DNA from: Candidatus Omnitrophota bacterium
GTDB taxonomy: Bacteria; Omnitrophota; Gorgyraeia; Zapsychrales; JBDRMG01
Assembly: GCA_043812495.1 (NCBI GenBank)
Contig: JBDRMG010000063.1
Location: 1-35,972, forward strand
Direction: 5' to 3'
Length of the DNA: 35,972 nucleotides
In this document: positions 1-35,972 of the stretch, piece by piece
Position numbering within the stretch: the stretch's first letter is position 1
How the letters are laid out: each line of letters begins with the position of its first letter
The notes under the pieces: generated by a model
The model's input: only the letters and a program-made list of their open reading frames with translations
Databases searched by the model: none
Told to the model about the DNA's origin: nothing
Translations under genes and position numbers: made by a program

Positions 1-2
1 CT

Positions 3-3000
3 TCGTTTCATGTTTGAGCTTCGTAGAGTTCTACTTTCGCCTTTCCGCCCAAAATCTTTGATTTTGGGCGAGATCTCGCCCTGCTTTGCAGGGCGGACAT
101 CCCCGTGGCAAGCCACGGGGTATTCGGCGAAGTAGAATAAACTCTTTGTGATATAGACAGGACTATAATCTCTCTGAGATATCAATTTTTGAGCATTTCC
201 TGCAACAGTCATGGGCATAAATCTAATCAAAAGAAGACATCCATTCGATAATTCAATTTTTGTTATTGAGCCATCTGTCTTAACAGGTTGTGGTTGATCT
301 ATGAGTGCTTGTGCTTTTAAGGTTTCCATGAGTATCAGAAGACTATCATCATTTTTAAAATTTGTTAATTGCACTAAAACCTTTTGATGCTCAGGAAAGG
401 TCTTGCGCTCTGCCCAGATGAAGTTCATTATACAATCCACCGTTATTCCTGCCTCCCGATGCCCTTTGTCCCAACTGACAATAAAATTAGTTGCTCCTTG
501 AACCATTCGATTGCCCATAGCTCTTTTCGTTTGACGAAGAATATCTTCTGCGTTCTGAGAACTATCCGCAAATGCACAATTCGTAATGATGTTTCGTACA
601 GTCAAGTAACGTGATGCCCGCACGCCACCTAAGACGCCAAAGATAAATGGCTTATGATAAAAGGTCTCTCCGATGCAGAAGGACAAACGATGTACCCCCA
701 ATTGATCCGCATCTTTCAACATCGAGAGAACTTTGGGTATATTTCGCGTTAGATAGGCACAAAATGATTCTGCTTGCAAGCAATGAATACAGCCTTGACC
801 GCACAGATCAGGACCCATCAATAAAACTCTTGGCTGATAAACAGGTCCCGTTATATATTCGGCATTGGCCAGTCTTATTGGGCGCAAAGGAGAATCTCTC
901 AATTGGACTAATCCAAAAACCGCCGGCAGACTCAAACCGGCCAAAAGATGGGCGATATCCCCGAGCATCTCCGCGCCCGAAAGAAGCGCGCAGCTGAGAG
1001 TTACCTCTTCTTTCGATTTGTCAGCGCGTTTCTGTCTCTTGAGACTATGGTAACGCTCCTTTCTAATTTGATTCTCTTTTCTAAGCTCTTCTCCGATAAT
1101 ATCTAATACGTCATAACTTAAAACGAAACCTGCAAGATCCACCTCGCCTAAAGCACTTAGCCAACCCACCAGGACTCTTTTCTGCTCAGGTTCAAGCCTA
1201 TCCGTTCGACGAATGATGTTAAGTAATACTTCCTTAGCATGAAAATCCCCTGATGGATCGGATGGCCTCCATCCAAACGTTTTAGAATACTCCCGGGTCA
1301 AAGATTCCGACTGTAGTAATTCCACATACATATTTTTATAAAGCGCCTGTCTTATATATGGATAAAATGGTCCGTGTTCTTGTTTTCGATAAAGCAATGT
1401 ATACCGAATAAGGGTATTTTTAGCCAATTTCTCCATTAATCCTTGATGCGTTGTCGGTCTTAGTTCATAAAACTCTTCTACGCATTCATCGATAAGACTT
1501 GTCAATAAACGAATGACGAAACCAACGGCTGCTGCATTCGGTTTTTTCATTTCCTGAATAAGTTTTATGAAATTATCATTCTGGATATACTGAGGATTTT
1601 GCCCAAGCAGATCCCCAAACTTTTTCAAGCGATTTTCATTGGCTGTATGCACCAGAGCATCATTAATGAATAATTTGTAAAGACACAAGTCTTTTGCTTT
1701 CCCTAAGGTGCTTGCGTGACCTAGAACCGGCGCACGGCCGCCTTTCGGATCATGGACAAGACCATAGATCACGTAATCATCACGATATTCTGACTCAAAA
1801 ACAACAACGCGCGGACACATCGGTTTAAAAAGTTCTGAAGAAATATCATAAAAGGTCAGCGGCTTGAGTTCTCCAAAATTCACTCCGGCAACATAAAGAT
1901 TTTCTGAGGATGGGGCAGGGAGTCTTACACAAAGAGAGCCGGCATGGTTTAATCCATTTCGATACTGTGAAAGAAAGCGAACCATCGCCTGTCTTTCAGG
2001 GATTTCCTCAATCTTCTTTTGCAGTTTTTCTTTGGCCTCTTTGAGTGTCTGGCCGCTTGCGAGAGTAGGACAATGCTTATCTTTGGTCTTTGGCACACCC
2101 ACGGTATCATAAATCACGACATGCCTTTTTCCGACAGCCGAGAATATCAAGACATAGCGCATAAGATCTTCGTTGAACTCAAACCAAATTTCATAAATTG
2201 TGTCCGCCAGGAGATGACCAAAGATAAGATGTCTATTTTTCCGAGGAGATATCCTTATTTTGCCTCCCTTCTTATTTTTACTTTTTGTGCTTACAAGAAA
2301 GACTCTCATAAAATCTGCCCCAGGCTCAAAGCCTTCAGCTTGTCCCCACTTCATTCGATAAAACTTCTCAAAAATCAATCGGCCCTTGGCTTCAAGAAGC
2401 GTTCTTCCTCTAGATAATGGATAGACTTCACGCGGCTTTCCCTTGGATGGTCTTGAAGGGATTGGATATAAAATATAGTCCTCTTCATTCTCGGACGTAA
2501 AAAGAAAAACATCCTTCTGCAGTTCTTCGACATGATGTAAAGATATCCAGTACCACGCATCTTCCACTAAACACTTGAATATAACTCTTTGATTTGGTTT
2601 CGGTATTACCGCTTTATAAGCTTCTTTCTTCGCTCTCGATTTCTTAGCAGAACGAAGGCCGGGTCTGGTGCATGTTTCTAGATAATTTTTAAAGACCTCG
2701 TGACCTTTGGACCAGCGGATATTTGAAGATCGCTTTAAGCTAAGATCAGATCTGGCTTCATCAAGCGTTTCCCCGTTCGCAAGAATAGGCACAATATTTT
2801 CTCCATCTGGGGGTTCACCGATCAACTCATAAATAATTACGTGTTTTTTGCCTTTTGCCGTAAAAATGAGAATATATCCGTTGAGATCTCTATTAAATTC
2901 GGATGAAACGATATAGGTTGTCTTTGCCAGAAGCTGCCGAAAGAGGAGGTATTTCTTCCTCGATGGGCTAATGAAAATACTCACTAAATGACGGTTCTTC

Positions 3001-6000
3001 GAGGCTTCTTGAGTTGTTATCTCAGTTTTAAGATTTCTTTCGAGTTTCATAAACTCTTCAGACTTATACCAATACATTCTATGGTATTCGTTGAGGGATT
3101 CACGTCTGCCAGTTTTTTGATCAGAGACCTTGCATCCGTTGACTGCTTTCACCCTCCCCGCCAAAGGCAGAAAGGCCATCGCAAGAATTAGAGGATGACC
3201 GGATGCACTTTGGTGAGTTAAAATAAATGCGGCTATCGCCAGCAAGGCTATGACAATAACACCAATAATAAACCATCTCTTGGATGCTTTTTGGGGACGG
3301 ACTGCTGGTTTTTCGCGTTTCTCTTGAACAGGTTGTTTCTTATCAGATTCTTTTTGTTTTTGAGGAATGTCGTTCTCTTTGGAGGCTGCCGACTTCATTT
3401 CCCTTAAGACCTGAAGGCGCCCTTTGACAGCACTAAGTCTTCTGTGAAATTCATCAAGTGGCTCTTTGATGTTTTTCTCTGATAAGGAAAGCTGCCGATT
3501 TCCCAAAGCATTGCGCGCTTTTAAGTCTTGCCAAGCGCCTTGAGCTGCTTGGACCAAGGCGACTGCTTTTTGCACGGCCTCCTGTAATTTTGTATCATGA
3601 CCAAATCCGGACTCTTCAATGTGCTGGAAGACCACGTCCATTTCCAACTCGGGTGATTTTGGCCCTTTGGTCTTTCTTTTCTTTTTCTTATAATCCGGCC
3701 GGCCGCCTTTATCGGAAGAATCCTTCATCAGTCCCACCAAGGGCACGAAGGCGGGACCAAAGACGTTGATGTGATGTAATCCGGGAAGTAAGGTGTTTAG
3801 CGCGGATAAGGAAATAAGCAGAATGAACGTCGAGAGCAGGAAGGTGAATAATCCGTAACGCCGATAAAGCGATCTATATAGGTGATCCGGGGCGCGGATG
3901 GTTGAGTCTCCAGTCATGGGTTCTGCTGTTTCCTTCTCTTCGACTCTATACAATATCCACACATGACGATCGTCTTTTCCTTTTTCCACCGGAATAAATT
4001 CATAAGGATTCTCTTCCTGGAATTTCTTGAGCGGATAGCGGATAGCAGATGGATCATTTTTACCTATACGCTCTACGCTAAACGCTAAACGCTCAAAAAT
4101 GGCGGATAGCGGATAGCGGATAGCGTATCGTTGATAATTAGGGACGTCTTTCATTCTGATCCCAAGGGTGTCCCCATAAGCTCGCCTAAGGGACAGGCTT
4201 AGGTTACGGATGAAGGACGTCCCTGATTTCGCTACTTTAATTTTACATACGATATACGGCATGCTACCTACCAGTACAGCAACAAGGAACACCGCCATCG
4301 CCCATGAATCAACATATAGTAAGATAATATTGAATCTTGCTTTCTGTGAACCTGGTTTTGGAGTCTTTGTCCATTTGAGCGTCTTATATCTGATCGCTTC
4401 TCTATACTGAATGGTATGTGCTATTCTAGAAAGAGTTCTTAAGGTTAATATTCCGATTTGGAATCTAAAGAATCGCTCTATTTGATAAACCAATAAGACA
4501 TTCGACGGATATCTTGCTTTTTCCATTCTGCACATCGTTGTCGGGGAAACGCCGATAATTCTAGCGAATTTGCTTTGACTGTAGCCATGGACGGTTCTTA
4601 ATATCTCAATTCTTTGTCCGACATGACCGTTAGTATGGTCAAGGGCTTCGCCCAAAGAATAACCCGTTAAGATCAAGGACGGTTTGACTTTTAAGATCCT
4701 GGCTAATTCGACGATTTTCTTAGCCGAAGGAGTATACTTATTCAGCTCCAATTCGTTGAAGCTCTGGAAAGCGGCATATTTATTTAAGATCCGTGAAACA
4801 TCTTTTTGTTTAAGGCCATTGATGATTCTTAACATCCTTATTCTTTTGCCTATGGATGCGCTACGGGCCAAGGCTTCCAAGAGAGGATATCCTTCCAGGA
4901 TTAAGCAGGGTTCGATCTGAAGTTCTTCGCATAACTCAACAAATTCCTGAGGCGATGGTGCTCGTTCATCATATTCCCAGCTAATGATTTTCCGAACCAT
5001 CGTACGTATTTCCCGAGAGCTTTTGCATAAGCGTTTAGCTAGTTCTTCTTGAGATAAACCGCGAACCTCTCTTGCTAATCTTAATCTTTGGCCCCTCGTT
5101 TTGTAGCGAGGCATGGCCATGGCTTCCGCAAGAGAACATCCAACCCAGATAAACGAAGGCTTGATATCCAGCGCTCGGCTCAGCTTAACAAGTGTTCTAA
5201 GAGCTGGGCGATGTTTGCCGTTTTCTAAATAACCGATGGCCGCCAAGCTGATATGCGCGCGCCAGGCCAGTACCTCCTGCGTTAGCCCAGATGCTTTCCT
5301 ATATTTCTTAATCTGCCGACCAATGAGAACCGCATTCTTTCGCCTTGCCTGTACCACAGTCATCAGGCCAAGACCGGCGAAAATGGCGATAAGGGTCATG
5401 GGATCGGCGGCCTGAAGGCTGAGGAATTCTAAGCCCGGGATGATGCCATTGACCTGCTCGGAATCTTCGGAAGGATCGATTTTTTCTCTCTCTATAACGC
5501 GATTTTTGATGAGATCGGTAAGTTTTGTTCTATTTTCTTCGAGCTTCGATTGATTGGCTAAATCAAGGCTAAAATACTCGAGGCGATCTCTAAAGTAAAA
5601 GAGCAGATAGCCATTTCGAATCAAAAAGAAGTTCATCAAAAACCATCCTAGCCGATGATGCCCTTCTGCCGTCGAATAAACGTGCTGCTGATCGCCTCCC
5701 TCCCCGATGAGCTTAAACCCTTCCTGACCGACAAGAACACGATGATATATGGTAAATAGATAAATCTCGACGGCATTTTCTAGAACTTTTTTGGGCGTTA
5801 TACAAATTGCGTTTGTTAATTTTAATAATTCAAATATCAGGGTCTTATAGAAGAATTCGCCCTTACCTAAAGTCAATCTTTGCTCGCGTTGATCTGAGTC
5901 CGTGTACTCTGGGTTATGGCGATCTCCTCGGTAGAGTTCGATTAAGTCGACAATCTGCGGCCATAGGATGGGTCGAATATCACCGTTTTCATTTTGCCCA

Positions 6001-9000
6001 ATGACTTTTTCGTTAAAATACTGAACGGCTTCAACAAAATTCGGATGCTGATTGAAAATTCTTTCTGGATCAAGCATGAGATGATCGGAATCGTCCATGC
6101 TTTTATCGTCTGATTTATGCATTGTGTTCGCAATCCTCTTTGCAGAATAACAAGATATCACAAAAATAATAATCGTAATAACGACACAAGCAGCCACTCC
6201 GATGAGCGTTGATGTCATGTCCCCTTTGGGGACCGCAATGCCGCCATGCAATGCGATGAAGTCAATCACAAGCATAGTAATAAAGATAACTGCTTTTAGA
6301 GCTCCTATTGATTTCATTTTCTGTAAAAGCAACATAACACCAACAACGTTTAGCATCAAAAGTGAGAACAGTTTCACAACATCTTGTATATTGATCAACT
6401 GTTCATGTCTTGTGAGTTCGGATCCTGCCAATGCCCCTTGCGCCTGGAGCAGGTCAGCCATGATACTAATCGCAGCCCACCAAAACGCGATGTGACGGAT
6501 GAATCTAAAGAATTTTTGCGTTGGTGTTTTGACGGCCTCTTGAGGCGCATGGAGATGTCTGAAGTAATGCGCGGTCACAAGAGCCCAGCCGATCAAAAGG
6601 CAAACGGCAATCAACTGCATATCTGAGGGGGCGAGGCAGTTTTGGCTGCTCGATCCCGAAATAGTATCTTTGTTCTCGTTTGCTTGATTCAGCAATCCCC
6701 GTTTGATTGCCACGCCCAATTCAATCACTTCGCCGGAAGGGAAGATAATGTACCACTTATCGGCAACATAGTAATATATAGGCTCAAAGTCAATCATGGG
6801 GACAAACGGATCCAGTAAGAATCCGAGCGGACAATTGAGAACATTTGAATTTCCGTAAATGGCTTTGATGTTAACTTGGCCTAGGCTGCCTCCTTCCGGA
6901 TTGCAAACAGATAAAAATAGGCACGGAATTGGATATTTTGCCGATATTTCGTTGACAGTCTCATCAAGATTTTCTCCATTACTTCTTAATTTAAGGCGAC
7001 CATCTTGAGTTTTTCCATGATCGGAGAAAATGTGCCGGGCGCTGGAAAGGATGCCGCAGGTCGAACTTATATCATTTGTGTTTTGCGCATAAAGAGAAGG
7101 GTCGAAAACAAAGAAGGCTAAAATGAAAGCCGCCCCAACTATCCATCGATTGCTTGAGGAATGCTGTCCCATCGGATAAGAGCTCTCTTCTTCATGGAGA
7201 TTAGGGACGTCCTTTGCCCCTATCGGAAGCCTGTCCCCTCGGAAATTGATCGGGGACACGCTTGATTTGCGGGCGAAGGACGTCCCTAATTTATTGCTTC
7301 TACTGAGAAATTTGAGAAAAGTCGACGCACCAGCCCAAAGGAGATTTATTGCAGAATACAAAAGCCGCCATACCCATAAGAACGGTCTCACCCGGCTTCC
7401 CTCGGAAGGAATTGTTGAAGCCGGGATGCCGACCTCCACTGAATTTCTCGAGAAAAGTCGGCACACCATTTCGGCACTTCTCGATATGAAATTGTGGAAG
7501 TCGAAATCCCGGTTTCCTCTATTAAACGTATTAAGGAAAACCGGGACCACGGAAAGGAATTTTATTAAAGAAGACGGTCGCCAGACCGGGCAGAGCGTTC
7601 CCCCACCAGCCACGGAAAGGTAGGAATGCTCCTTTAAATGAGCCCGGTCTGGCGACCTTATTGGTTGTTTCGTGGCCTTACCATTATTGTAATCATTCCC
7701 AACGCGATTGAGAAAGATTTTTACAACTTTTTGCCGCAGTATCTTAGAAACAAGAAAACTGATCATCATCACGGTGATGAAAATAGGTATCCACTTGCTT
7801 ATAAGCGTATTCAAGTCATTGATGGACACGGCAGACATGAAGAGTAAAATATTATGCACTTTGAAATTCTCTAAAGAAGGCTTTTGCGCTCGCAGGCCGA
7901 TCATAAAGGTTGTCTCTTTGGGCAGGTGATCGACCTCAAAAATTCCACCCTGATTTTCGATCATCTGACGCACAAGTGAAACATCTCCTGATCTCGATTT
8001 CATCATGTCTTGCGCGCAAGCTTTGAATTCGATCAGCAGATCTTGATCTTGACTGTCATATGTTGTTTCGATTCTTAAAATGGGCCAGGGACCGGCGAAT
8101 TTGAAATGATTTGAGCTGATAATAAACAGATTGAGAAACACGCGTAGTAAGGAACTATGGGAAGCAATCACCGGTGGAGCCTTATTCTGCACGACGCGTG
8201 CCAGACGGATATGCCTAACCATGTAACGGTGTTTGATTAACTGAACGGCTTGGTCCATGATATTGTCGATATCGACTAATCGTCGATCCATAACCGTTTG
8301 CCGTTCCGGCTGTAATTGGCTAATGACGGCTTTAGCTGACGCCGCCATATGGGAGAGCTGCTTATCTTCGTCTTGAATGAATGCGCCGAGAGCGTCCAAA
8401 GAAGTGTCGACAAAATAATGAATCAATAGGAATGTTTCGGTCGGATTTGGCCGGTCGATATCAACCGATAATGTGCGCAGGCGATACACCTGATCTTCTT
8501 TATCGCGCGTTTTTGTTCTTTCGCTTAATGCCTGATCATCCGCAACGTTGTGTAAATATTCGGCCATCAGAGAAAGAATAGCGCGATAATCCCGGATGAT
8601 CGCCGGCCACTGTTCGGCCAATTTTTGCGCCCTTAAGGCCATCGGCTCTATACAGGTTTTCTTAAAGGGTGCGAATAAATTCCGTGTTTCATAACCGGCC
8701 AGCCGGAAGCCTTGGGCAAGGTCTTCAAAACTCAATAATTCTTGTGCGTCCATAAGCCCAAGCAAACAGACCAAGGCTGTTTTGCGAACAAGTGTCAACT
8801 CACCAGCGCGGACCATAGCCAAATTCGTATTCTTGGCAAACAACCGGTGACAAAGAGTAGCCTTGGGCGCGGCCATGATCCCTTCGAAGATATTTGCCGC
8901 GCCCAAAACGATAACATCGCTTTCGTACTCGTTGATTCTTCTGATTGTATCGGCGATGATCTTTTGCTCTTCGGTATGCTTGGTCTGATACCCTTGCGCG

Positions 9001-29100: not shown

Positions 29101-32100
29101 TGGGTAAGTAGGGTCTTGAGCGAGGGCCTCTTTGGCCGCTTCTTCCATTTTGTCAATCTGCCCCATCTCGGCGTACTTCATGGCCAAATTATACAAACCC
29201 TTGGCTTTTTCCAGGCCTTCCGGCGCCAAGTCCACGGCCTCTCGATAAAACCGTGCGGCTTTTTCTTCATCCTGGAGGTGATCGCCATAGGCGATCGCCG
29301 TAAGATTCAAGAGGCCCGCATTCACGTATCCTCTTTCTCTTGCTTCTTCAAGAATTTCCGGTATTTTCTCATAACGCTTCAACTCATAATTGGCCCGGCC
29401 CAGAATAAAATAAAGATAATCTGACCGCCTTGTGTCAACGCCTTTTTCTTCCTGGAGCCTTAAGGCTTGCCGGGCAAACGAAAGCCCGGCTTCAAAGAGG
29501 CCTTCGTTGAGACAAATTTCAGCCCTGTAGCCCATGGCACTGATATGGAGGAGAATGCCGGGCTTAACATCATTGCGCAAGAATTCCTGCGTATGCGCCA
29601 ATGTTTCCTCGATATATTTCCTGGCGTCTTTCCATCGGCCGGTTATCATATAAGCCGCGCCGATGTCATGGCAGGCGACCCTGACAAATCCGGGAATCCT
29701 GAAATTCTGCGAATGGCTTCCCAAGATCGTCCGCCTGTCTTTGACGAAACGAATGAGTCTTTCGTAATCCTGAGTTTGAAAATAGAGATTAACGAGATCC
29801 ACCATCACGTCGATATTGCCCGGCTGGATGGCGATCGTTCTTATGAAGTCCTCTTCGGCCTCCTTGGATCGTCCTTGTCCTTTCAAAAGAAGCCCCCGCA
29901 CAGAATAAAGTCTGGCCTGAAATTCTTTGCGTTCGCTCGTGGAGAGTCTCGCGTCCTGCGTCACTTTTTCCGCGCGATCTGTTATTGCAAATATTTTTTC
30001 TGCATCATCGAAGCGGCTGTAGAGATTTGCGTAAATAAGAAGAACCGGGATCCTGAATGCCGGCCTTTCCTGAACGCAAGCCAATTGATCTATGCGCTCA
30101 AACACGGCGGCCAGGGTTAACAGAGTTGCTTTATCCATGTCGCTTTCGACCAACCGGCTCAAGGCTTTCTGAAGAGGTAGGTCGAAATTGTTTTCCTCAT
30201 CAAGAATGTCCCGCTCCATGGTCAGAACCGTCTGAACAAGATTCTCAATAAATGGGATATCATTCGTCACGGCAAAGTTAAAAGAAATCACGCTGGATAA
30301 AACAAAGATGCAACCGGAATCCTTTGCATTTTCAGGTTTACCCAACAATCGCTCGCAGGCCAGCCTGTTATTGTCCCGGGCTCTTTCAAGATCATTCGTT
30401 CTGGTATAAAGAATCGACAATAAATTAGGAATGCCGAATCTCTCTTGATTCAGTCTCTTCGCTGTCTCAAGATATCCGATGATTTCCTGGTCATGGCCTT
30501 CCTCGCCTTTGGCTTCAATCGCCTCCGCGAGCGAGCAAAGCATAAGAGACTTCACGGAATCCATGTCTTCCTCATCCCCTTGCTCCTCGATACCCTCAAG
30601 CGCTTCTTTTAGAAGCGCGATCGTTTGATCAAATTCTTTCTTAAGAAAACACCCTTGCGCCTTATTGTAGCAATCTAACCAGCTTCTTCTCTCGCGTTTC
30701 GACTGAAGAGCCTGACGCTCATCTTCCGACACGCCTTCGACAAGCTCGATAAGCATTGTGACAATTTTTTTCTCTCTATCTCCCAGCGGCCAGCCGTTCG
30801 TTGAATTAACGCTGTTTAAGAAATTTCTCACAAAGGAAATATTCCTCACGTTGTTGAGGGCGAACTCGTTGCGCACTCTGACCGCATAGACCTGGTATCC
30901 TTCCCGAATATGACCCGGATAAATTTCTCTGGGGAGCGCGCTTTCCAAAATGTCCCTGCGATAATCCAAATAATGTTTGGCAGCGATTTCTTGCGCGCTT
31001 TTACGAAGAAGGGCGATGCGCAAATTGCGCCTGATCTTGTCCTGCCGCGATTCTTGTGAGCTTTCAGCGTCCCATTCAGCCTCCCATGCAGTTGCTTCCT
31101 CTGGCCCTAATTGTTCCAAGAGTTCGATCAGGGCTTCCTTTCGGGCATAGGTATTGAGCGTGACGGGAGTGAACAGGCCCTCTTCGATTAATTTGCCAAA
31201 TTCTTCGTCAACCATAGCGCATAACCGCGGAACATTCTGCGCCGGAATCAGTATTTTATTCAACGCCCGTTTCTCAAACATCCAAAGACTGATGCAGTAA
31301 TAAAAGCTGTTTGAAAATTCTTCTTGGGTAAGGCCTTGGGTATTTTTCAGAACATCAGTGCGCGTATAAAGAAAGTTGTAGCACTGGATATCCAATTGTT
31401 TCCAGCATTCGTCTTTGATGTCTCTGATCGAGAAACCTGGATTTTGCGCGAGTGCGTCAATAATACGGTCGACATCTTTGCGCAATTCCCGTAATCCTGT
31501 ATCAAACCCATTGCCCTCTCTACCCGGCCCTCCATAAACAAGCCGATACACTTCCTTGAGTTTGCGTCTTGTCCCATAGTACTCTTTGGCTACGGCAACA
31601 GCGTATTGCCAGTCCCCTTCAGGTGTCCCGGGAGCAACGGGAATCCGGTTGTTCTCAATAATAAATCCTCGGAAAATATCATCAAGAAACTGAACAAGAT
31701 TTCCTGATCCCTTTTGTATGATATCAAAAGCGTTTTTCAAATCCCTCAGGCTTAATTTTGGATGATCAACGGCAAACTGCGCGAAGGTTAAAGGGAGAAT
31801 ATCGTGTTTTTGATAATAGCGGGAATTCAAAATCACGCAGGCTGCGCCTACCGAAAGAACGGCCAAGAGCATTTTCGGCAGGTCGCCTCGGTCGTCCCAA
31901 TGTTTCACGACGGCCTCATAAATGGCATCCTGGATGTCCTGCTCATCATGCCCAAAGACCTCGGCGTAAAACGGATGGTTTTTCTCAATATAGTCTTTGA
32001 GGATCAACGCCAGGAATAAGGCGCCGATATGCCCGACGGTTCTTGTTTTGGCCTGTCCTTCCGTCGTTGCAAGGACATCGGAAACAAGCCACATGATTTC

Positions 32101-35100
32101 TTCACGGGCTGAATCATCTTTGCCGTAAAGCTGGGGCAAGAGAGCCGCTAATTCTCTTTCCGCTCTCTCAATTTGTGCATCAACCGTCTGCTCGCGGTTC
32201 TCTTCTTGTTTTTTCGTTTTTCGTTCGTTGAGCTGTCCGATGACCGCAGCGACATAGTCCTGAAATTTTCGGTTCTTTATTTTCCTTTTAAGCCCTTCCA
32301 AAAGCTCAACGGCCTCATCAATCGCCTGGGTCTCCTTAAGGACCGGTAATTTGTCGATTTCCTTCTGGATCTCGCTGAATATCTTCTTTCCACCGTTCAG
32401 GAGGGCCAGTAATCGTTCAAGCTCACCCTGAACTTCGTCAAGGATTAAACGATCGAAGTCCGCACCAACGGTTTCTGTGATTTGGGCGATCTGCGCCTGG
32501 ACGCTCCGCAAATGTCTGTTAATATCTTGGTCATCCGGGGCCAGCTGAACAGCTTGATTCAAAAATCCTTGGGCGCTTCTTAATAATGATATTTTCTCTT
32601 TCAAATCGTCCGTAAAATCAGCTTCTTTTGCCTGCAGGATCCCGTGCTGGTAATAGACAAAAATCTGATCTCGTTTTTTGTCTTCTTCGAGGGCACGTCT
32701 TTCACTGCGCTCAAGAAGTCCATCCAAAAACATCAACGTTACATCAAACATCGCGCTTCGCTGCTTTTCAAGAAGTGTTAGTTCGACGGAAAGCGCGCAA
32801 AGGGCCCTCAAGGACTCCGGATAGCGCATCATAAGTTTTCTTTGCTTTTTGGCGATAGCCAATAGGTCTTTAACATTCTTTACTTTTGATGCTTTTTTCT
32901 TCGCAACGGCCATATCCAAAACAGCCTCTTGAAAATGCTTGCGGGCCGATGTCAGGTCTCCTTCGTCAAGAGCAAATCGAATATAAGCAATGGAGCACGA
33001 CACAGACAACAACAATTTCTCACTTACGCTGATCTCAACGGCCTTGGCCAAACAATCTTTCGCCCCTGTCCTGTCTTCTTCCTGCCATTTCCGCCCGGCT
33101 TGTGCAAGAAATTTGTAAACTTTTGCTATGGTGCTTGTCTCATCGATTTCTAGGGCCTTGTCCGCAAATCTCTCCGCGAATAGGTATTTGCCATTTTCAT
33201 AATGCATGGTAGCCTTGACAAAAGCAATCCACTTGTTATTCTCGCCATCTTCAAGCCTTTTTAAGGCCTGGAGCGCGGCTTGATATTCTTCAAGGGTTAG
33301 AAAACATAATCCTTCCAGAAACTTATAACGTTTGATCAATGTTTGCCCATCCTCATCAAGCGAATCGTATTGCTCACACAACGAATCAGCAAGAGCTTTT
33401 GTTTCATGAAAATATCTGAGGACTTCTTCGGACTTATTGGACTGAACATAGGCGCTGGCGAGCTGATTAATAGCTTTGATTTCTCCGATAGGATTTTTTT
33501 GTTTTCGGGCAATCTCAACAGCCTGTGTAAGGATGCTGATGCCTTTCTTGAGAAACTTCTCCGCCTTATCAGCCTTCTCTTGTTTGCCCATTTCATAACC
33601 AGCAATCACGCAACACTCGCCAAAGGCATAACACATATCAAAATCGACTTTCCTTTGGCTTTTCATCAATTCTTGCACTTTTTCGTGATAGTCATACGCC
33701 GTATCAAAATCCTGCCTGTTGTAACAGATAATCGCCAAGTAGTAATACGGGTCGGCCACGGTTTTATCTATTTCAATAGAGCGAAGAAGAACTTCTTCGG
33801 CTCTTTCGGGATCAAGATTAGCGAGAAGACCTCCTAAAAGCGAAAGATAATGCTGATTATTCGGATGAACTTCAAGCAGTCCTTCCACATAGGCAATTCT
33901 TTCAGGAACATCCATTGTGTCCCATCGCTTTTCCCGAACGTCACCGGAGGCAGAATGGCTGGTTACTTTTCGCATGACATTAGAAGCGACATTGTTAAGT
34001 TCATTTTCCGGGGTTTGTTCTTCAGGATCGCCGTTCTTGCCGTTCTTACCCGTCGGGTCAATTAGGCCCAAGGCGATGAGGGGAACATCCATGCCTCCCA
34101 TTGTTTGACCAGTCAGTATTCCGTAGATGATCAGGCTCGCAGCAACACCCGCCAAGGCGACAGATAAAAGGTGTTTGTAACGCGTGTTTTTATTCGCAAA
34201 GAAGTACCACGCGGCTATCGCGAGCATCAACAAAATAAGAAACTCCGTTCCGGGCGCGCTGAATCCGACATAAAGCGGCAGGGTGCCCTGGATTCCGTTA
34301 CCGGAGTCTTTTTCTTGAGCCAAGTGGTCGGATTCGATTTGAAGAAGGCGCAGAAGAATGAGCGACTCATAAAGGTGCTTTCGGACGATTGCGGCTTGTT
34401 CGGATTCAGGCTTATCTTTGGTAAAACCTATATAATTTGCAATCATGGTAAAATTTGTATCGAGAACCTGCTTGATCGCTGATTGATAAGCGTCAACGGT
34501 TGTCAGCCTCATTCCGTGAGGATCAAGCTGCTCAACAATGAATTTCTCTTCTTGCAAATAGGGCATACGCCTATAGACTTCCTGAAGGACGCTTTGCGCC
34601 TCGCTGATCACTTCTTCTTCGCTTAAGACAGCCGCTCTTCGATACACAGCAAACATGATAGCCGGCTGGTTAATCGACAAACATTTTGTTAACACGGCGG
34701 CTTTACTGAGGAATTTAAATAGATTTCCAAACAAGCTCTGAGTCAGCGGATCATCCCTCATCTGCTGGACCATGGATTGGACAACCTTTGCTTTCCACTC
34801 AGGATCAAAAGCGATGCGCAGGGCATGGTAGAGGTCTTTCCTTAGTTTTTTTCTTTTGAAAGAACTGATATCTTTAAGACCGTCGATAAATGTACGGTAA
34901 GCCTGCTGGATCTGTTCTTCTTTGTCTCGGGGGTTCTCTAAGTGAATTATGCGAATTGCTTGGGTGAGATTTGTTAATGCGTTGTAATCCCGCGTGGCCG
35001 GATAAATAATGCTGTTGATATAACAGTCGGTTCGCACATCATCCGGTACGGGGGAACCGCGCAAACGATTGAGCCGGCCTATATAATGCGCATAAGCTTC

Positions 35101-35972
35101 TTCGAAGAGTGTGTCTTGATCGTCAATGGTAATATTTCTTGAGCCGTGAGTCAATTTCCATCTTTCCTGCAAATAGCCATAATAATGGCCGATGGCTTGC
35201 TTGGCTTGTGAATCGTCAGCGACATACTCCTGAATATCGTAAATCTCCAGGCCCAGCGGTTGATCTTCCGTCGTTTTGCACACGACGATGAGACGCGCTT
35301 GTTTTTGTCCCTCTTGAATATAAGAAAGGTAATAGTTTTGTACCGGTTCGCTTGTTATTTGACGGAGAACATATTCCCGAAACCTTTGACGGAATTGAAT
35401 GGCTCCTAATTGTCGATTTGTCATTTTTTCGGCGTCTTTCCGCTTATCCGCCCCGAATTCCTCCGCATACCACGCAATCAATTCTTCTCTCGGCGAATAA
35501 TCATGCCGAGAGGCCTTCTTGAGCGCCTCGACTTCAAGTTCGCTATACTGCGCAAGATTCCGGCCGATATAGCCAACATGCGCATGATCCACATTTTCAA
35601 AACCATCTAAGGAGTCAAGAAAATCTCTGATCGCATCTCTGGCCTTATCGGGAACATCAAATGCAAAATGGAGCCCCACGGCTAAAGCCGTGGTCTCCGA
35701 CGAAGGCGGATGAATTTTGAGTCCGTTTTCTGATGAAAGCAGCGGTGAGCTTGAATCGGGTTCAGTAAAATCAAAGGGCATCTGTGTATCTTGATCGTCC
35801 TCTTCTCGTTTGCCACCGAACACCATGCCCGCAATAAACAGGCCCACCAAAACAAGCCAAATGATCCCGCTGTTGATGTCTCCCGTCGAAAACATATGCT
35901 CCAGCCCCAAGAAGCCGATAATACCTAAATGAAGAGATTGTTTCTCAAAATCCTTGCCTTCGCCGTCTTTTT
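17002..35972 (-). CDS. ORF-A: giant TPR-rich multidomain membrane protein (at least 6322 aa, 5' end beyond window end)
   Basis: The ORF track gives 6302 aa from a TTG at 35910, but the frame stays open to the edge (..KDGEGKDFEKQSLHLGIIGFLGLEHM), so the true start lies outside the window. Many hydrophobic segments separate soluble domains. Confidence 0.95.
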   Translation of the reverse strand, partial: KDGEGKDFEKQSLHLGIIGFLGLEHMFSTGDINSGIIWLVLVGLFIAGMVFGGKREEDDQDTQMPFDFTEPDSSSPLLSSENGLKIHPPSSETTALAVGLHFAFDVPDKARDAIRDFLDSLDGFENVDHAHVGYIGRNLAQYSELEVEALKKASRHDYSPREELIAWYAEEFGADKRKDAEKMTNRQLGAIQFRQRFREYVLRQITSEPVQNYYLSYIQEGQKQARLIVVCKTTEDQPLGLEIYDIQEYVADDSQAKQAIGHYYGYLQERWKLTHGSRNITIDDQDTLFEEAYAHYIGRLNRLRGSPVPDDVRTDCYINSIIYPATRDYNALTNLTQAIRIIHLENPRDKEEQIQQAYRTFIDGLKDISSFKRKKLRKDLYHALRIAFDPEWKAKVVQSMVQQMRDDPLTQSLFGNLFKFLSKAAVLTKCLSINQPAIMFAVYRRAAVLSEEEVISEAQSVLQEVYRRMPYLQEEKFIVEQLDPHGMRLTTVDAYQSAIKQVLDTNFTMIANYIGFTKDKPESEQAAIVRKHLYESLILLRLLQIESDHLAQEKDSGNGIQGTLPLYVGFSAPGTEFLILLMLAIAAWYFFANKNTRYKHLLSVALAGVAASLIIYGILTGQTMGGMDVPLIALGLIDPTGKNGKNGDPEEQTPENELNNVASNVMRKVTSHSASGDVREKRWDTMDVPERIAYVEGLLEVHPNNQHYLSLLGGLLANLDPERAEEVLLRSIEIDKTVADPYYYLAIICYNRQDFDTAYDYHEKVQELMKSQRKVDFDMCYAFGECCVIAGYEMGKQEKADKAEKFLKKGISILTQAVEIARKQKNPIGEIKAINQLASAYVQSNKSEEVLRYFHETKALADSLCEQYDSLDEDGQTLIKRYKFLEGLCFLTLEEYQAALQALKRLEDGENNKWIAFVKATMHYENGKYLFAERFADKALEIDETSTIAKVYKFLAQAGRKWQEEDRTGAKDCLAKAVEISVSEKLLLSVSCSIAYIRFALDEGDLTSARKHFQEAVLDMAVAKKKASKVKNVKDLLAIAKKQRKLMMRYPESLRALCALSVELTLLEKQRSAMFDVTLMFLDGLLERSERRALEEDKKRDQIFVYYQHGILQAKEADFTDDLKEKISLLRSAQGFLNQAVQLAPDDQDINRHLRSVQAQIAQITETVGADFDRLILDEVQGELERLLALLNGGKKIFSEIQKEIDKLPVLKETQAIDEAVELLEGLKRKIKNRKFQDYVAAVIGQLNERKTKKQEENREQTVDAQIERAERELAALLPQLYGKDDSAREEIMWLVSDVLATTEGQAKTRTVGHIGALFLALILKDYIEKNHPFYAEVFGHDEQDIQDAIYEAVVKHWDDRGDLPKMLLAVLSVGAACVILNSRYYQKHDILPLTFAQFAVDHPKLSLRDLKNAFDIIQKGSGNLVQFLDDIFRGFIIENNRIPVAPGTPEGDWQYAVAVAKEYYGTRRKLKEVYRLVYGGPGREGNGFDTGLRELRKDVDRIIDALAQNPGFSIRDIKDECWKQLDIQCYNFLYTRTDVLKNTQGLTQEEFSNSFYYCISLWMFEKRALNKILIPAQNVPRLCAMVDEEFGKLIEEGLFTPVTLNTYARKEALIELLEQLGPEEATAWEAEWDAESSQESRQDKIRRNLRIALLRKSAQEIAAKHYLDYRRDILESALPREIYPGHIREGYQVYAVRVRNEFALNNVRNISFVRNFLNSVNSTNGWPLGDREKKIVTMLIELVEGVSEDERQALQSKRERRSWLDCYNKAQGCFLKKEFDQTIALLKEALEGIEEQGDEEDMDSVKSLMLCSLAEAIEAKGEEGHDQEIIGYLETAKRLNQERFGIPNLLSILYTRTNDLERARDNNRLACERLLGKPENAKDSGCIFVLSSVISFNFAVTNDIPFIENLVQTVLTMERDILDEENNFDLPLQKALSRLVESDMDKATLLTLAAVFERIDQLACVQERPAFRIPVLLIYANLYSRFDDAEKIFAITDRAEKVTQDARLSTSERKEFQARLYSVRGLLLKGQGRSKEAEEDFIRTIAIQPGNIDVMVDLVNLYFQTQDYERLIRFVKDRRTILGSHSQNFRIPGFVRVACHDIGAAYMITGRWKDARKYIEETLAHTQEFLRNDVKPGILLHISAMGYRAEICLNEGLFEAGLSFARQALRLQEEKGVDTRRSDYLYFILGRANYELKRYEKIPEILEEARERGYVNAGLLNLTAIAYGDHLQDEEKAARFYREAVDLAPEGLEKAKGLYNLAMKYAEMGQIDKMEEAAKEALAQDPTYPEAHLAMASVYQQRGEVDKAVQSYCQVRSLGSDSINARLNLAVLYAQVDRLDDAANELRPVMATDRYENALLAELPTQPRKSRAVLSGVAIFLVRELSEEIVALTEQIDRKAGKTKENHSDGNGKKTKGKAGKKSTAKAKKKRKDTELETWKRERRQKTDLLKVQMRIFLVLTENIAIEELIKFFETMMEMEPIKADADLADQIRQRVVQIPEWMEDMRKQQEADEKLAEEMEDLLGQAWSFYDQGRYEEAKKYVDQILSKMPLHEGARALRIKILYAHAQKAFKEDRLSDARRFAGAVLGKDPSHEGARALLAQIGQKEKEKALERLQGNVNKLVELYRGGDPEGFKEDLNKLREPELFGDIFEAYPQEAGAIMTVAENEAKKKDHLDEESLVRLLEERTAGCINDYNFRIPETFEECLSALGEEFQGKLDEEKIDEILNRARAEIVGIEEDRLQKVEEYKGRLMGIACDMPEKIEQAIADFTGQHEDHLKEQEKEDIQAEVRECARENLIKKRCDESAAALREDRLSDARQLADEVLALDQDHRGAKNFLNQIAQKEKEKRLDDLREAVCGFANRYPGGDSEGVLEDLEGYRRPGSFGEVFWAYRAEAEAIMVEAKQIAKRKDGLDEAGLAKTLEEEARAAVIDYDFRNPDAFHNRLHDLEEQYAGQIPGGRIDWILKQAEDSVDRKEEARSKKFGAFRYSALTIAEQRPQNFEEEFARLRLQFSEHLTDYEIAKVEKLAQERLKGSLGEIKTSDLKQLRTSVNAIVSSYLGEDPKGLGADFARLPQVHEAIFTQYPEDAEGIVKAARKDAYKKDKVILQKKNDVLIAGYQGENLEELKATINDLIDSFDYVFGQGEIETFKNLTLRSVGRRIMTNLRSGGGIQRQDEDETVAAFATQITFAVSLYNPVDPREYEETRRNAIGTFENKLDSDQMNNVLGQARDQIKKMNDLHNIKVGEYKKQAKALAEEQFENQETFEASLDDFTKGLLGKGEITPQEAEDIKQAGLAEAEIYRDVSSAEAKDALAKERLGIDPEVKEELTFDKVAEILTDQYPWIRAHRFGERMVSEYLLAVQTSDSPMTPQQVLEAFKEFKSAGMLLTEALDGVFGLSIFEKAHYQMRMLLSNAINARNDLDWDDIGALIKALKASGEAINLDAIKRLAGAIKAGKNKNFDKLIEENLNGSVGFGLWPQDLMDMLSSGLTRGDVLIALILVVGLLTLAYALSHRQQIIEFMQDKASLSRLGTFFALILRVSPLLREWDTLQQPAKNVPNLGWPKTLAKNILLLPVTLAMGGPVYPNPYDENRPFYDHAIELKLAIVPSMQKVEYSNLLTITYRKQDKVYSIDSDDFHRIMNGDDPECSAISELTDKSEDGLRPVMDIKACETLASLFFMTRRILEEYPVHSTQQIITFGASSAKDINQERKEEEEGITLTVGLKISDGACTIMLGIVEMVKEHYELHPVRHDIAMIAFDINEPSKSWLHYASPLAQRVLSQDAGAFSCRLYSLVNAFTLFNPSMSFLSIPHSGRVITGHFDDKATSVNEFLFFNSPEECLLLMILLSGTFFALILRVSPQTKDGDTLQQPAKNVPNLGWPKTLAKNILFLPITLLMGGGYFNLAHSRNVENLVSPLGSPEEMQSVFSLPGLGSVHLDLVLWGVILVLAYGVYRNVVMSYVVRSYGLTINTNPHCKTVGRLATRYLLLSTPLIFAVLFFILANEQALAGMLFCDLPAFMLFAAVFPDDDRKEDSVLTENHPITITATDGQEFTLMLERSYKNRYLIEVYYNDLRYGVISFEIKGSEAIIGGEYKSWSEAVRVDTLVLERRTRVRYRGFHAVLVIEAMKVAQNMGAKFIETIDDRKKVGLLRTLCFEEYPLEDGRVRMRFYFSSGRSIPKAKITTTSEADDARIAANQNAQKSQYNAAIGNYGKGTGYMGAARLYLAQRNDEQARKAFESAFIAAKISLRNDNKAIEILDQWKEAMLQVSRTTEAIECLERKANLLKELKRYQKALDPIQEIARIHQGLKAYPEASDYYYQAASLAVKKLKDVDRGINLSKEAYACSRLANDPRRIIFHAWVTIELLGHKIEISSRGQVLRTICDGFDEQQEAAKLYGEAKKHFEAAEETPGHHLVAAALMASHPLIADYEQFIVLAEAANTHYQRAPAITKETSRERIVADIGLLRRVRMNVFFEGKMPKEARCAFELASTLAASLNEPKLIPEFLGKEISRLEKQFAQEQFKIDGDRSSEKARQAASGNDHPLAITHGLEAVSHYIKAQVFGNEVPSMVQFCLEHARTPEDFEKIITKIDEWAGGLLSGFSGYRIFYLFNQPNQKMIFATDQLPGWCRLYAGELLFNAFLWTSGWLHENQDTTGYNDDFTQSMEFLTKAAEYLEYAYSRNQRFPLDYKTRNLQRLTGYIEKGRTRVAQLIEDEKFEEAKTACNAVKFFALALEDGKTAGAIFEKMKAIDARTQEPAKESEHAANQAQSEAQAYERKEEYPQALDKYLEAAQCFYEAKQYSCVQSVLNFAFQIVTGRYVSQEKSYEAIQKIAWLASSLAIHYRNEEDSEKMMLPSLMVMLDAEQAFEKHEGEIGTKLYVDVAKSYYEGPREYFAKIADHQGECLLIASIMASCPLIGENDQFRLLSERAEKFYSGTRDIAKDAYPRFEGYVRLCVKRAEVFIKQRMPEEGWQAYRLATALAKTMRNPSAVPASLRKDLERLDHPDNCIYWSEILRQRYLGENNEKANEVLALGDMEEELIWLAKELRNIIRELRADTYIVNVILWLADMGKIPSDEFDSWKQEVLIVDRVWDQNFSIGFAIEGAIVEHGEDIDGIIQYFRSGEFCFEDDKFSNWVFKLHKDAIYRGIFYNSEVLERMFNECHGLGASEITKKLERAYMRMQDIGKLSLEDIVFMLKAVGKITDEELPKWRAQIGQARVDALKIKETKKQKRLEWEMSLREGGRSGRKKKGGDRAGDPETVVRLIEELVPEGSAQSDKKKKEIKPDGQKRYDERHKPRQGEGTTSSEKKKNKKKQNKRSPGEKKRRAKKKAAKRKSSNCWFVPGLPVGHAGSSDAAIALIAAAVGLLIMIAIAYWLTRKIRLQSPVAHLLFPMLLSAAAGVLIILKVYSASLEPFHPFSIFLMIALTGIVRSDRNTALRQDAKDLRLKLKQAVLERTVDEEMILKAVKLMARYRHWLRGVKKDLRNEAELQIARNMPCLIYECESCLNKSSQSENLSFDGSHNPKGISYKIAKKICDDRERGHFGFDWNRLEDYFLQGRGVWLAIGKTDRRIIIKGHGTILMSPENDLINIREKIMIYLSKNLLVLQNRFLKEQSNQFQYLGCYLQDLILFVYAIDGIIAEDGLALIIKNPFCITSLEFNPSQKCYVSVFPVIDFAHLNHIFWGVAMMVLVALILKARWVDKLRNKEVIIIGAGIGGSYAAMLAARNGFNVRILERTPENKTGDPLFGRKCAEGVWLEKLVQAGFDMDRNHLPDWVVHSTNQFMLGRINKRGQIDTAELRTTPYLYINRKLFEQENLRKAQEAGAIIDYGVNIEDLEAFAREHSDSIILLATGTNASLTRQMLLPEERRKDKTDHSYALVAQYTYTGVDLTRLGKYKTLIASDNPDIGWFYMYPRGRTAESEVNVGIGFAKAKTSRPFDVLDSIIACVDEHFGGIFENAMIIPDRKFAKHISIGKPITFSNMDKERLPNVIPIGDAARQASALTGGGIGNALYSAKEAISLLKKHADKSPAVVQREYFDSIQDFLENLTKIAESYSRLYPQEKKPKIRVLNKIMIALSELERIDGVLSLVSLKELVGKIEHEQTLPEKIINEFRSVEGIFEKSAYEKITILLKIIKERRLLELLPQPELWWEEIVEDALEMDLQELQAVLLKEKESQVAISSRKEDVLRAIGFYGRLSPHRSINESLPEAMRAEGVYDNGKKEDISIGLAGVILRDKPALGEIYGYLGINFSNLDPILFGLALAVLIALILKAYRARAQSADGRTMDPSASPFAYAQGKLRGERWTMDEIPRLPSLIPHLS
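17800..18850 (-). other. FAD-dependent oxidoreductase domain of the geranylgeranyl reductase family within ORF-A
   Basis: VIIIGAGIGGSYAAMLAARNGFNVRILER, KCAEGV, YINRKLFEQ, GWFYMYPRG, VNVGIG and IGDAARQASALTGGGIGNALYSA. Confidence 0.88.
20960..23350 (-). other. TPR/SNAP-like helical solenoid with an internal ~490 aa duplication within ORF-A
   Basis: YPEASDYYYQAA / YPQALDKYLEAA. LMASHPLIADYEQF..MPKEARCAFELASTLA matches IMASCPLIGENDQF..MPEEGWQAYRLATALA. Confidence 0.7.
23455..23850 (-). other. Possible GNAT-like domain within ORF-A
   Basis: VRVD..RYRGFHAVLVIEAMKVAQNMGAKFIE..VGLLRTLCFEE follows the GNAT motif A/B order. Confidence 0.45.
23994..24121. repeat. Heptamer/octamer tandem-repeat tracts
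   Basis: GAGTAGC-type x5 (23994-24028) and CATACGA/CATTACGA-type x7 (24069-24121), translated in ORF-A. Confidence 0.85.
24270..24423. repeat. ~150-bp direct repeat containing 89-bp palindrome copy 3 (24335-24423)
   Basis: Near-identical to 25221-25374, offset 951 nt (317 codons). Encodes GTFFALILRVSP..DTLQQPAKNVPNLGWPKTLAKNILFLPITLLMGG. Confidence 0.95.
25221..25374. repeat. ~150-bp direct repeat containing 89-bp palindrome copy 4 (25286-25374)
   Basis: Partner of 24270-24423. Confidence 0.95.
26640..28270 (-). repeat. ~239 aa helical internal repeat (two full copies plus a partial third) within ORF-A
   Basis: EDRLSDAR..QKEKEK..Y.GGD.EG..ED..KKD.LDE..DY.FR.P recurs at a 717-nt offset. The third copy is YLGEDPKGLGAD..YPEDAEGIVKAARKDAYKKD. 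Confidence 0.85.
28900..30680 (-). other. TPR array within ORF-A
   Basis: For example RLYSVRGLLLKGQGRSKEAEEDFIRTIAIQPGN and EAHLAMASVYQQRGEVDKAVQSYCQVRSL. Confidence 0.9.
32500..33900 (-). other. TPR array within ORF-A
   Basis: For example DPYYYLAIICYNRQDFDTAYDYHEKVQEL and FVKATMHYENGKYLFAERFADKALEID. Confidence 0.9.

Follow-up and report, generated by a model that had tools for sequence, protein, structure and literature searches.

Studies on the Omnitrophota describe giant multi-enzyme transmembrane (TM) proteins of the Archaeovorin type (West-Roberts et al. 2023, 10.1101/2023.11.21.568195) and a 'multi-enzyme metabolic cluster' class of giants (Nielsen & Lui 2026, 10.64898/2026.06.07.730766). 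An earlier note on the DNA analysed here had taken the occurrence of very large multidomain membrane proteins in this phylum as established, and both accounts agree with it. Neither main text describes operons nested within such genes, and the literature returned on toxin-antitoxin (TA) operons inside giants consisted, as far as the available text of these papers goes, of general overlapping-gene papers or unrelated ones. Embedded antisense overlapping genes are described in E. coli and Pseudomonas (PMC7103648, PMC9927249, PMC8850804). The sedentary chromosomal integron of Vibrio cholerae carries TA cassettes with their own promoter, scattered in its array (PMC13108822). DUF4258 toxins are called experimentally undescribed in PMC11980606.

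The window, that is, the whole stretch of 35,972 nucleotides that we analysed, is one entire contig (C63, JBDRMG010000063.1) of a genome labelled G000, whose assembly comprises 1.94 Mb in 66 contigs and is 90% complete. Its RecA, a single marker, has its best matches in Omnitrophota (87% and 78% identity, among the matches listed). No 16S gene was found in the assembly, and an Rfam search of the window gave 0 matches. The explanation we favour, with a probability of roughly two in three for the whole of it, is that the window belongs to a giant gene which carries one slip in a repeat and, on its reverse strand, a TA operon equipped with its own promoter, and that a frame filter would account for the origin of this arrangement. 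The two long frames and their contents are as follows.

17002..35970, minus strand: ORF-A, 6,322 codons, 5' open; stop-free over 35970..17005, TGA at 17004-17002, open at the right edge
3..17168, minus strand: ORF-B, 5,722 stop-free codons, 3' open, open at the left edge
28222..29916, minus strand: TPR block, cargo of ORF-A (Pfam)
17914..18846, minus strand: geranylgeranyl-reductase-like FAD domain, cargo of ORF-A (TIGR02032, E=7.5e-21, below cut-off)
10431..10745, minus strand: HATPase_c domain, cargo of ORF-B (Pfam, E=4.7e-23)
10017..10262, minus strand: HPr domain, cargo of ORF-B (Pfam, E=1e-31, two stretches)
near 13370-13600, minus strand: second HPr-like stretch, ORF-B (Pfam)
4656..5312, minus strand: HTH_3 (XRE-type) repeats, cargo of ORF-B (Pfam)
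4137..4229, unstranded: palindromic repeat of ~90 bp, in frame in ORF-B (repeat search)
7200..7290, unstranded: palindromic repeat of ~90 bp, in frame in ORF-B (repeat search)
24334..24424, unstranded: palindromic repeat of ~90 bp, in frame in ORF-A (repeat search)
25285..25375, unstranded: palindromic repeat of ~90 bp, in frame in ORF-A (repeat search)

The earlier note had claimed that the minus strand is free of stops over 3..17168 and that ORF-A stays open at the other edge of the window. Frame computation confirms both. Beyond ORF-B, its frame has 302 stops in 6,268 codons; the chance of 5,722 codons without a stop is log10 P about -123, and chance openness of ORF-B is therefore excluded. 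As assembled, the two frames are not a single ORF, with an offset of +1 from ORF-A to ORF-B, and we regard ORF-A as the likely upstream part and ORF-B as the likely downstream part of one giant gene. By hydropathy, hydrophobic segments alternate with cargo domains in both (13 segments in ORF-A and 19 in ORF-B, 32 in total), so the proposed common grammar of cargo and hydrophobic linkers stands. The claim of common repeat families stands in part: the ~90-bp palindrome occurs in two copies per ORF, but the heptamer arrays, present in both ORFs, have differing units and are alike in class, not in family. No conserved linker cleavage motif was found; there is only a mild Ser/Pro enrichment ahead of TM segments. 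The final module of ORF-B holds a CxxxCxxC motif (780-803, minus strand) that looks radical-SAM-like by eye; the module has no Pfam or NCBIfam match. A second foreign- or reverse-strand-looking stretch of ORF-B (7300-7620) adjoins a palindrome and has no family match in any frame.

ORF-A and ORF-B overlap by 167 nt, the ORF-A stop included, and the junction is built of nested repeats.

16970..17124, minus strand: junction element, a heptamer array with three REP-like insertions (sequence comparison)
17107-17095 plus 17070-17059, minus strand: outer REP-like copy of the junction element, 25 nt
17094-17071, minus strand: inner REP-like copy of the junction element, 24 nt
17011-16988, minus strand: reverse REP-like copy of the junction element, 24 nt, containing the ORF-A stop
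17063..17066, minus strand: run of four Gs, likely the +1 slip site (three Gs in sibling repeats, here and in relatives)

Removal of the 49-nt nested insert restores the heptamer array, and the +1 offset maps onto the 25-nt copy of a 24-nt REP-like repeat, that is, onto one extra base. Separate promoters and terminators at the junction, which would speak against a single gene, were looked for in 16300-17600, and 0 promoter-like and 0 terminator-like sites were found there. Over 1-18000, neither kind is in excess (29 promoter-like sites vs 26.9 in shuffled sequence, 19 terminator-like sites vs 20.2). Separate short genes are rejected on these counts. The earliest ATG of ORF-B is codon 201, and conserved coding begins ~100 codons upstream of it. 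ORF-B codons 81-620, searched against 1.84 billion representatives, gave 14 matches, mostly long proteins, and the best matches of the ORF-B start align from about codon 99-125, to internal positions of long proteins. With no promoter or good start, and with homology preceding the ATG, ORF-B is therefore best taken as a continuation of ORF-A, which supports the proposal of the earlier note that the two are parts of one gene. The window is likely an internal piece, ~12,000 codons long, of one giant gene that is offset once by an extra base. A DNA search of 40 relatives with 15000-19500 gave short repeat matches only and no orthologous junction. Twenty long stretches from 10 relatives show four breaks in their giants, all at N gaps. 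Apparent frameshifts at L244, L243 (G029:C20) and L259 (G028:C56) fall on N gaps; giant-gene lengths are therefore underestimated in short-read assemblies.

No read covers the slip in three runs that hold exact 2x pieces of this strain. An assembly error and a real break at this place are indistinguishable from the sequence at hand, and we give the assembly error about even odds. Hairpin repeats are prone to such errors, which counts against a real slip, as do the zero nonsense codons in about 28,000 joined codons and the fact that both breaks of G000 can be placed in short homopolymer runs. If the slip is real, a recent insertion of the repeat or expansion of the G run would have broken the gene, and ORF-B and all that lies downstream would be untranslated in this strain. 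We consider this possible, though on the unlikely side. Indels are uncommon in short-read assemblies, and the 141-nt contig overlaps give this assembly a short-read look. In addition, the slip sits within a nested, mobile-looking repeat, another +1 break outside Ns occurs in C20, the likely continuation, and two frameshifts with zero nonsense codons in the inferred gene would also fit a gene that died recently. This second break (C20 33579-33670 of G000) has no Ns and no repeat, and stands beside a four-T run. A programmed +1 frameshift that joins ORF-A and ORF-B, or a pair of separately translated genes, seems quite improbable to us. Both breaks in G000 are +1, the junction RNA is foldable (z=-1.7), and a TTG at ORF-B codon 102, near the start of homology, might open a second gene; but no clear ribosome-binding site precedes this TTG, and promoter and terminator are missing there. 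ORF-A would terminate in translated repeat sequence. By eye, the two junctions have no motif in common and neither contains the site motif of prfB-type frameshifting, and the 20 stretches of the relatives' giants hold no breaks outside Ns. A programmed shift is judged unlikely for its lack of a conserved shift site and of an orthologous junction in the 40 relatives. We retain the reading of one giant gene with a single extra base.

Frames of this kind occur on 11 contigs of G000, amounting to 271 kb or 14% of the genome, and the longest has 25,094 codons. The window ends on the left in a repeat shared with other contigs.

1..140, unstranded: contig-end repeat, common to both C20 ends and to the right ends of C32 and C39

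Because of this repeat, common to C20, C32 and C39, the contig breaks at 1..140. An exact match of 103 bp links the left end of the window with the right end of C20, and the join is in frame: ORF-B and C20 together give 10,473 codons, then the second +1 break, then 11,223. The repeat at this join has three possible exits. In the simplest linear order, C39-C20-C63, there are about 28,000 codons and the end lies just within C39; if the exit leads to C32 instead, as many as 9,316 further open codons would be gained, and a direct exit to C39 would meet a stop soon after the repeat. Extension of the contig both ways, as the earlier note had advised, thus works on the left and not on the right, where no join was found. 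Contigs C32, C52, C19 and C35 chain via 141-nt overlaps into one frame with 9,316 codons open, and C11 with C37 forms a chain of 8,992 codons. A true giant-gene start lies on C45 (2927 onward, L103), with a C39 peptidase domain and 0.02% cysteine. On contig C39, a 2,177-codon protein that is RHS/YD-repeat-like by eye (3423-9956, L110) is convergent with a likely giant 3' end. SecA_DEAD is found in C10 and C55 only, GH77 in C53 and methyltransferases in C19 and C20, and Y1_Tnp has 7 matches in the genome.

One part of ORF-B looks like reverse-strand sequence, and there the opposite strand carries an operon between two direct repeats. The earlier note does not mention this operon, which is the more unusual feature of the window.

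11500..11528, plus strand: Sigma70-type promoter of the nested operon (10/12 consensus, 17-nt spacer, extended -10)
11559..11825, plus strand: DUF4258 gene, 88 aa, predicted RelE/BrnT-fold toxin (Pfam E=0.0019, full profile length, below cut-off)
11838..12050, plus strand: DUF2283 gene (70 aa) behind a ribosome-binding site; predicted antitoxin (Pfam E=2.9e-15)
11294..11391, unstranded: 98-bp direct repeat, left copy; reads as a hydrophobic linker in ORF-B (81% identity between copies)
12107..12204, unstranded: right copy of the 98-bp direct repeat (period 813 nt = 271 codons)

The module is antisense in ORF-B and bracketed by the 98-bp repeats, the frame of ORF-B is unbroken across it, and both genes are codon-aligned with ORF-B. 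Two small adjacent genes behind one promoter present the layout of a type II TA operon, and a similar promoter stands ahead of all five nested DUF4258-DUF2283 pairs, including that of the window. The predicted structure of the DUF4258 protein (pLDDT 93.6) has BrnT, HP0894, YoeB and RelE-type toxins as its top Foldseek matches, none at E<=0.001 (for BrnT, prob 0.99, TM 0.60/0.67, E 0.13). Prediction of the complex gave the pair a score of 0.83 vs 0.00 for the best control, a level that 116 of 157 solved pairs and 2 of 215 mismatched ones attain. Agreement of contacts between runs is 100%, and the partner pLDDT is at least 86. This prediction lends support to a putative binding of DUF4258 to DUF2283, and together the two genes are predicted to form a toxin-antitoxin operon. 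A Pfam scan of 174 of the 175 alternative-frame ORFs of at least 58 aa in the window left DUF4258 and DUF2283 as the only credible families; matches to WAV3_C and FZ_RECK were below cut-off and were rejected. A scan of metagenomes with the DUF4258 protein as query gave no match.

When the 575 antisense ORFs within giants of G000 were scored by codon usage, TA genes came out on top. Four nested PIN-family toxins are confirmed by Pfam (two on C42, one each on C53 and C65), HicA-HicB is nested in C53 and in C20, where HicA contains a stop, and DUF433-DUF5615 is nested in C19. Whole-genome searches with eight TA families found 10 TA loci, of which 8 are nested in giant ORFs and 2 are free (ParE on C47, DUF433 on C41); 8 of 10 loci in 14% of the DNA corresponds to a binomial P of about 9e-6 at 15%. 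The census of antisense genes in the other giant contigs is a lower bound, since its Pfam scan covered 100 of 492 antisense ORFs, picked mostly by codon score. A search of G000 for PemK gave 0 matches. Other genes are nested as well. An IS630 element of two ORFs (C20 8479-9484, L098), the single copy in the genome, lies opposite the giant frame. A pair of related coiled-coil genes, 40% identical to each other, is nested antisense in giants on C65 (24181-24537) and C53 (3783-4169) and has no credible Pfam family. On C53, at 7899-8184, an antitoxin-like gene precedes a PIN gene of which only the final ~27 codons are left; this is a nested module with its toxin deleted internally and the giant frame still open.

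Searches of 61 genomes gave 73 HicA and 62 PIN_3 matches, of which 67 and 57 were classified, leaving out 6 and 5 that were weak, partial or at a contig edge. A match was counted as nested when it lies antisense to a frame that stays open for 450 codons or more, and in nearly all cases this frame spans the whole locus. On this count, 19 of 67 HicA and 18 of 57 PIN_3 genes are nested, 37 of 124 in all, in 17 of the 37 genomes with matches; these counts include the 2 HicA and 3 PIN_3 of G000 itself, and for one HicA host, the 661-codon frame on G034:C100, the status as a giant is uncertain. Same-strand nesting was seen in 0 of the 124 classified matches. In long stretches of the relatives, host frames are open over the full 20 kb. 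The nested genes keep to set registers: HicA is codon-aligned in 18 of 19 cases, and PIN_3 lies third position on third position in 18 of 18. The third antisense register is never used; free genes have 0.06-0.07 stops per codon there vs 0.03-0.05 in the others, about twice as many. The geometry of the operon may determine the register of each gene. Among free TA genes, those with at least one stop-free antisense register are a minority. With DUF2283 as query in 168 genomes of the order, every one of the six closest matches (identity 60-71%, from six families) is nested, and all eight distant ones are free; the 301 genomes of the class add 13 matches, with 6 nested among 7 close ones and 1 nested among 6 distant ones. 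Internal stops occur in 3 of 37 nested toxin matches vs 2 of 87 free ones. Giants at L189 (G035:C29) and L265 (G003:C217) contain a homologue of the first module of ORF-B, which in G003 adjoins a nested DUF2283 gene. At L263 (G164:C51) and L265, the nested DUF2283 has other upstream partners, DUF433-like or PIN-like by eye, and DUF4258 is cut down or missing; nested modules therefore appear to stack and recombine.

On phylogenetic trees, the nested genes appear to form their own clades, which span several families. The nested/free label changes 5 times, vs 16.7 (HicA) and 15.2 in shuffles, and three all-nested HicA clades have SH-aLRT of 96-98; these are quick trees of 76 and 148 columns, and their starred branches are compatible with a single origin. 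In the TA frame, nested HicA clades have pS of 0.72-0.77 and pN of 0.19-0.28, like free clades, and the DUF pair has pS of 0.76/0.87 and pN of 0.20/0.34. In the giant frame, pS is about equal to pN for the nested HicA clades and for the DUF pair. These values point to purifying selection on the nested genes as TA proteins. Leu/Ser codons that would make giant-frame stops number 0 of 218 in nested HicA and 0 of 105 in the DUF pair, against 141 of 561 in HicA genes that are free; zero stops are partly definitional for a nested gene and are informative only since synonymous sites are saturated, and P values are overstated because kin are not independent. Ala/Thr codons that would make giant-frame Cys fall roughly 7-fold, from 78 of 297 in free to 4 of 109 in nested genes. 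This cysteine signal is weakened because GC3 is higher in nested HicA (0.53 vs 0.42 in free) and other A-ending codons also drop, at most about 3-fold. The Cys content of the ORFs in the window is 1.0%, near the 1.3% of ordinary proteins. Taken from sequence comparison, the pattern suggests that the giant frame is translated across the inserts; over TA genes it is constrained for stops and probably for Cys only.

Members of one nested clade have DNA that is alike over the operon only, with unrelated flanks. Of the 41 nested modules, 11 have strong flanking direct repeats and 30 do not; such repeats were seen at 8 of 80 free TA loci and at 7 of 220 sites chosen at random in giants. Three flanking repeats are perfect (179, 58 and 27 bp), the repeats differ from module to module, and 16 of the 17 inspected have a period divisible by three. 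With unrelated flanks and such periods, modules that were stop-free beforehand therefore appear to insert with local duplication of host DNA. No recombinase for the modules was found in G000, which holds only two XerC/D-sized recombinases. The integron integrase profile TIGR02249 stays below cut-off in G000 (90% complete) and exceeds it in only 5 of 61 genomes; an integron model was rejected for want of an IntI over cut-off in G000.

We propose that a giant gene translated end to end would act as a frame filter. Inserts would survive only if their length is a multiple of three and they are stop-free in the giant frame, and in some TA lineages synonymous codon choices that satisfy this filter may have become fixed, for the two antisense registers in which stops are scarce. 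TA modules would then move from one giant gene to another, with a segment of host DNA duplicated each time. A module could loop out by way of the flanking repeats, the toxin would punish its loss, and modules would thus persist. They likely also protect the repeat-rich giant gene from deletions, as TA cassettes of superintegrons do; this stabilising role is likely by analogy with the TA cassettes of the V. cholerae integron as described in PMC13108822, and a benefit to the host is something we infer from that likeness. The fuller version, in which synonymous recoding has freed the reverse strand of mobile TA cassettes from stops and left it poor in cysteine, and the cassettes insert in frame with a duplication of host DNA and serve as addiction locks for polyprotein genes of 100 kb, we consider tentatively, well short of even odds.

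Pure selfishness is nearly as likely as a stabilising role. The nested modules may be passengers of no use to the host, with the giant gene as a tolerant landing ground and addiction as the means of persistence, and as a complete account this is quite possible, if not an even chance. The giant frame likewise continues across an IS630 and REP-like repeats, the giant-frame peptide over TA genes has pN about equal to pS, and some nested toxins are decaying. On the other hand, 8 of the 10 TA loci sit in 14% of the genome, yet the free TA genes that are stop-free in any antisense register are a minority, and giants are therefore a hard, not an easy, target; the range of nested clades over several families also argues against mere passengers. 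An unlikely alternative function is anti-phage defence, or regulation of the giant gene by antisense transcription or mRNA cleavage, with nesting as a saving of space. The RelE/ParE superfamily does include defence toxins, according to PMC11980606, and the near-consensus predicted promoter points against the giant transcript, but the diversity of toxin families (HicA, PIN, DUF4258, DUF433-DUF5615) fits addiction better than one regulatory role.

If the frame-filter reading is correct, the nested TA operons offer class-wide natural long antisense overlaps with selection measurable on both frames. Parts of giant proteins would be read-through of foreign DNA, and we therefore argue that continuity of translation, not sequence, is selected there. 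The operons also suggest, in a form that can be tested, how genes so rich in repeats and 30-100 kb long or longer are maintained. Most TA systems of these bacteria would escape annotation, as would 8 of the 10 found in G000. If the modules are indeed addiction locks, the giant gene would be the single-ORF counterpart of a superintegron.

In comparison with known systems, the window resembles the multi-enzyme giants in its phylum by RecA, its many TM segments and its HATPase_c, TPR and oxidoreductase cargo. Set against giants of at least 10,000 aa, it has 6,322 and 5,722 codons in two frames, and more than 10,000 if these are joined. The Archaeovorin type is marked by an N-terminal C39/S8 peptidase, a divergent SecA DEAD domain and GT/GH/HEAT content. 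In G000 a C39 peptidase stands at a giant start elsewhere (C45), the 5' end of the window's gene lying outside it; the window itself has no SecA_DEAD, GT or HEAT match. A dockerin-type giant (dockerin and TSP3 repeats, TM-poor) was rejected, as there are no such Pfam matches and many TM segments. Like Rickettsia palindromic elements and REP/RAYT systems, the gene has palindromic repeats read in frame, with Y1_Tnp in the genome; unlike them, several unrelated families are nested in one another, and one copy breaks the frame. With the embedded genes of E. coli and Pseudomonas, as those reports present them, the nested operons share a complete ORF antisense within another gene. Those cases are novel ORFs in ordinary genes, whereas here entire operons of old recognisable families are embedded, with their own predicted promoter, class-wide recurrence and a mobile look. 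As in the published outline of the V. cholerae cassettes, TA modules with their own promoter sit in a long repeat-rich array, and their loss would kill; unlike that integron, the array is one reading frame, and its flanking repeats vary between sites instead of resembling attC. The bicistron and a predicted fold nearest BrnT, HP0894 and YoeB are like those of the RelE/ParE (BECR) type II TA systems, in so far as these are characterised in the source cited above, and the assignment of DUF2283 as partner of DUF4258 comes here from gene order and the model. The giant gene is a further member of a published class, and the nested, lineage-specific TA cassettes are the new part.
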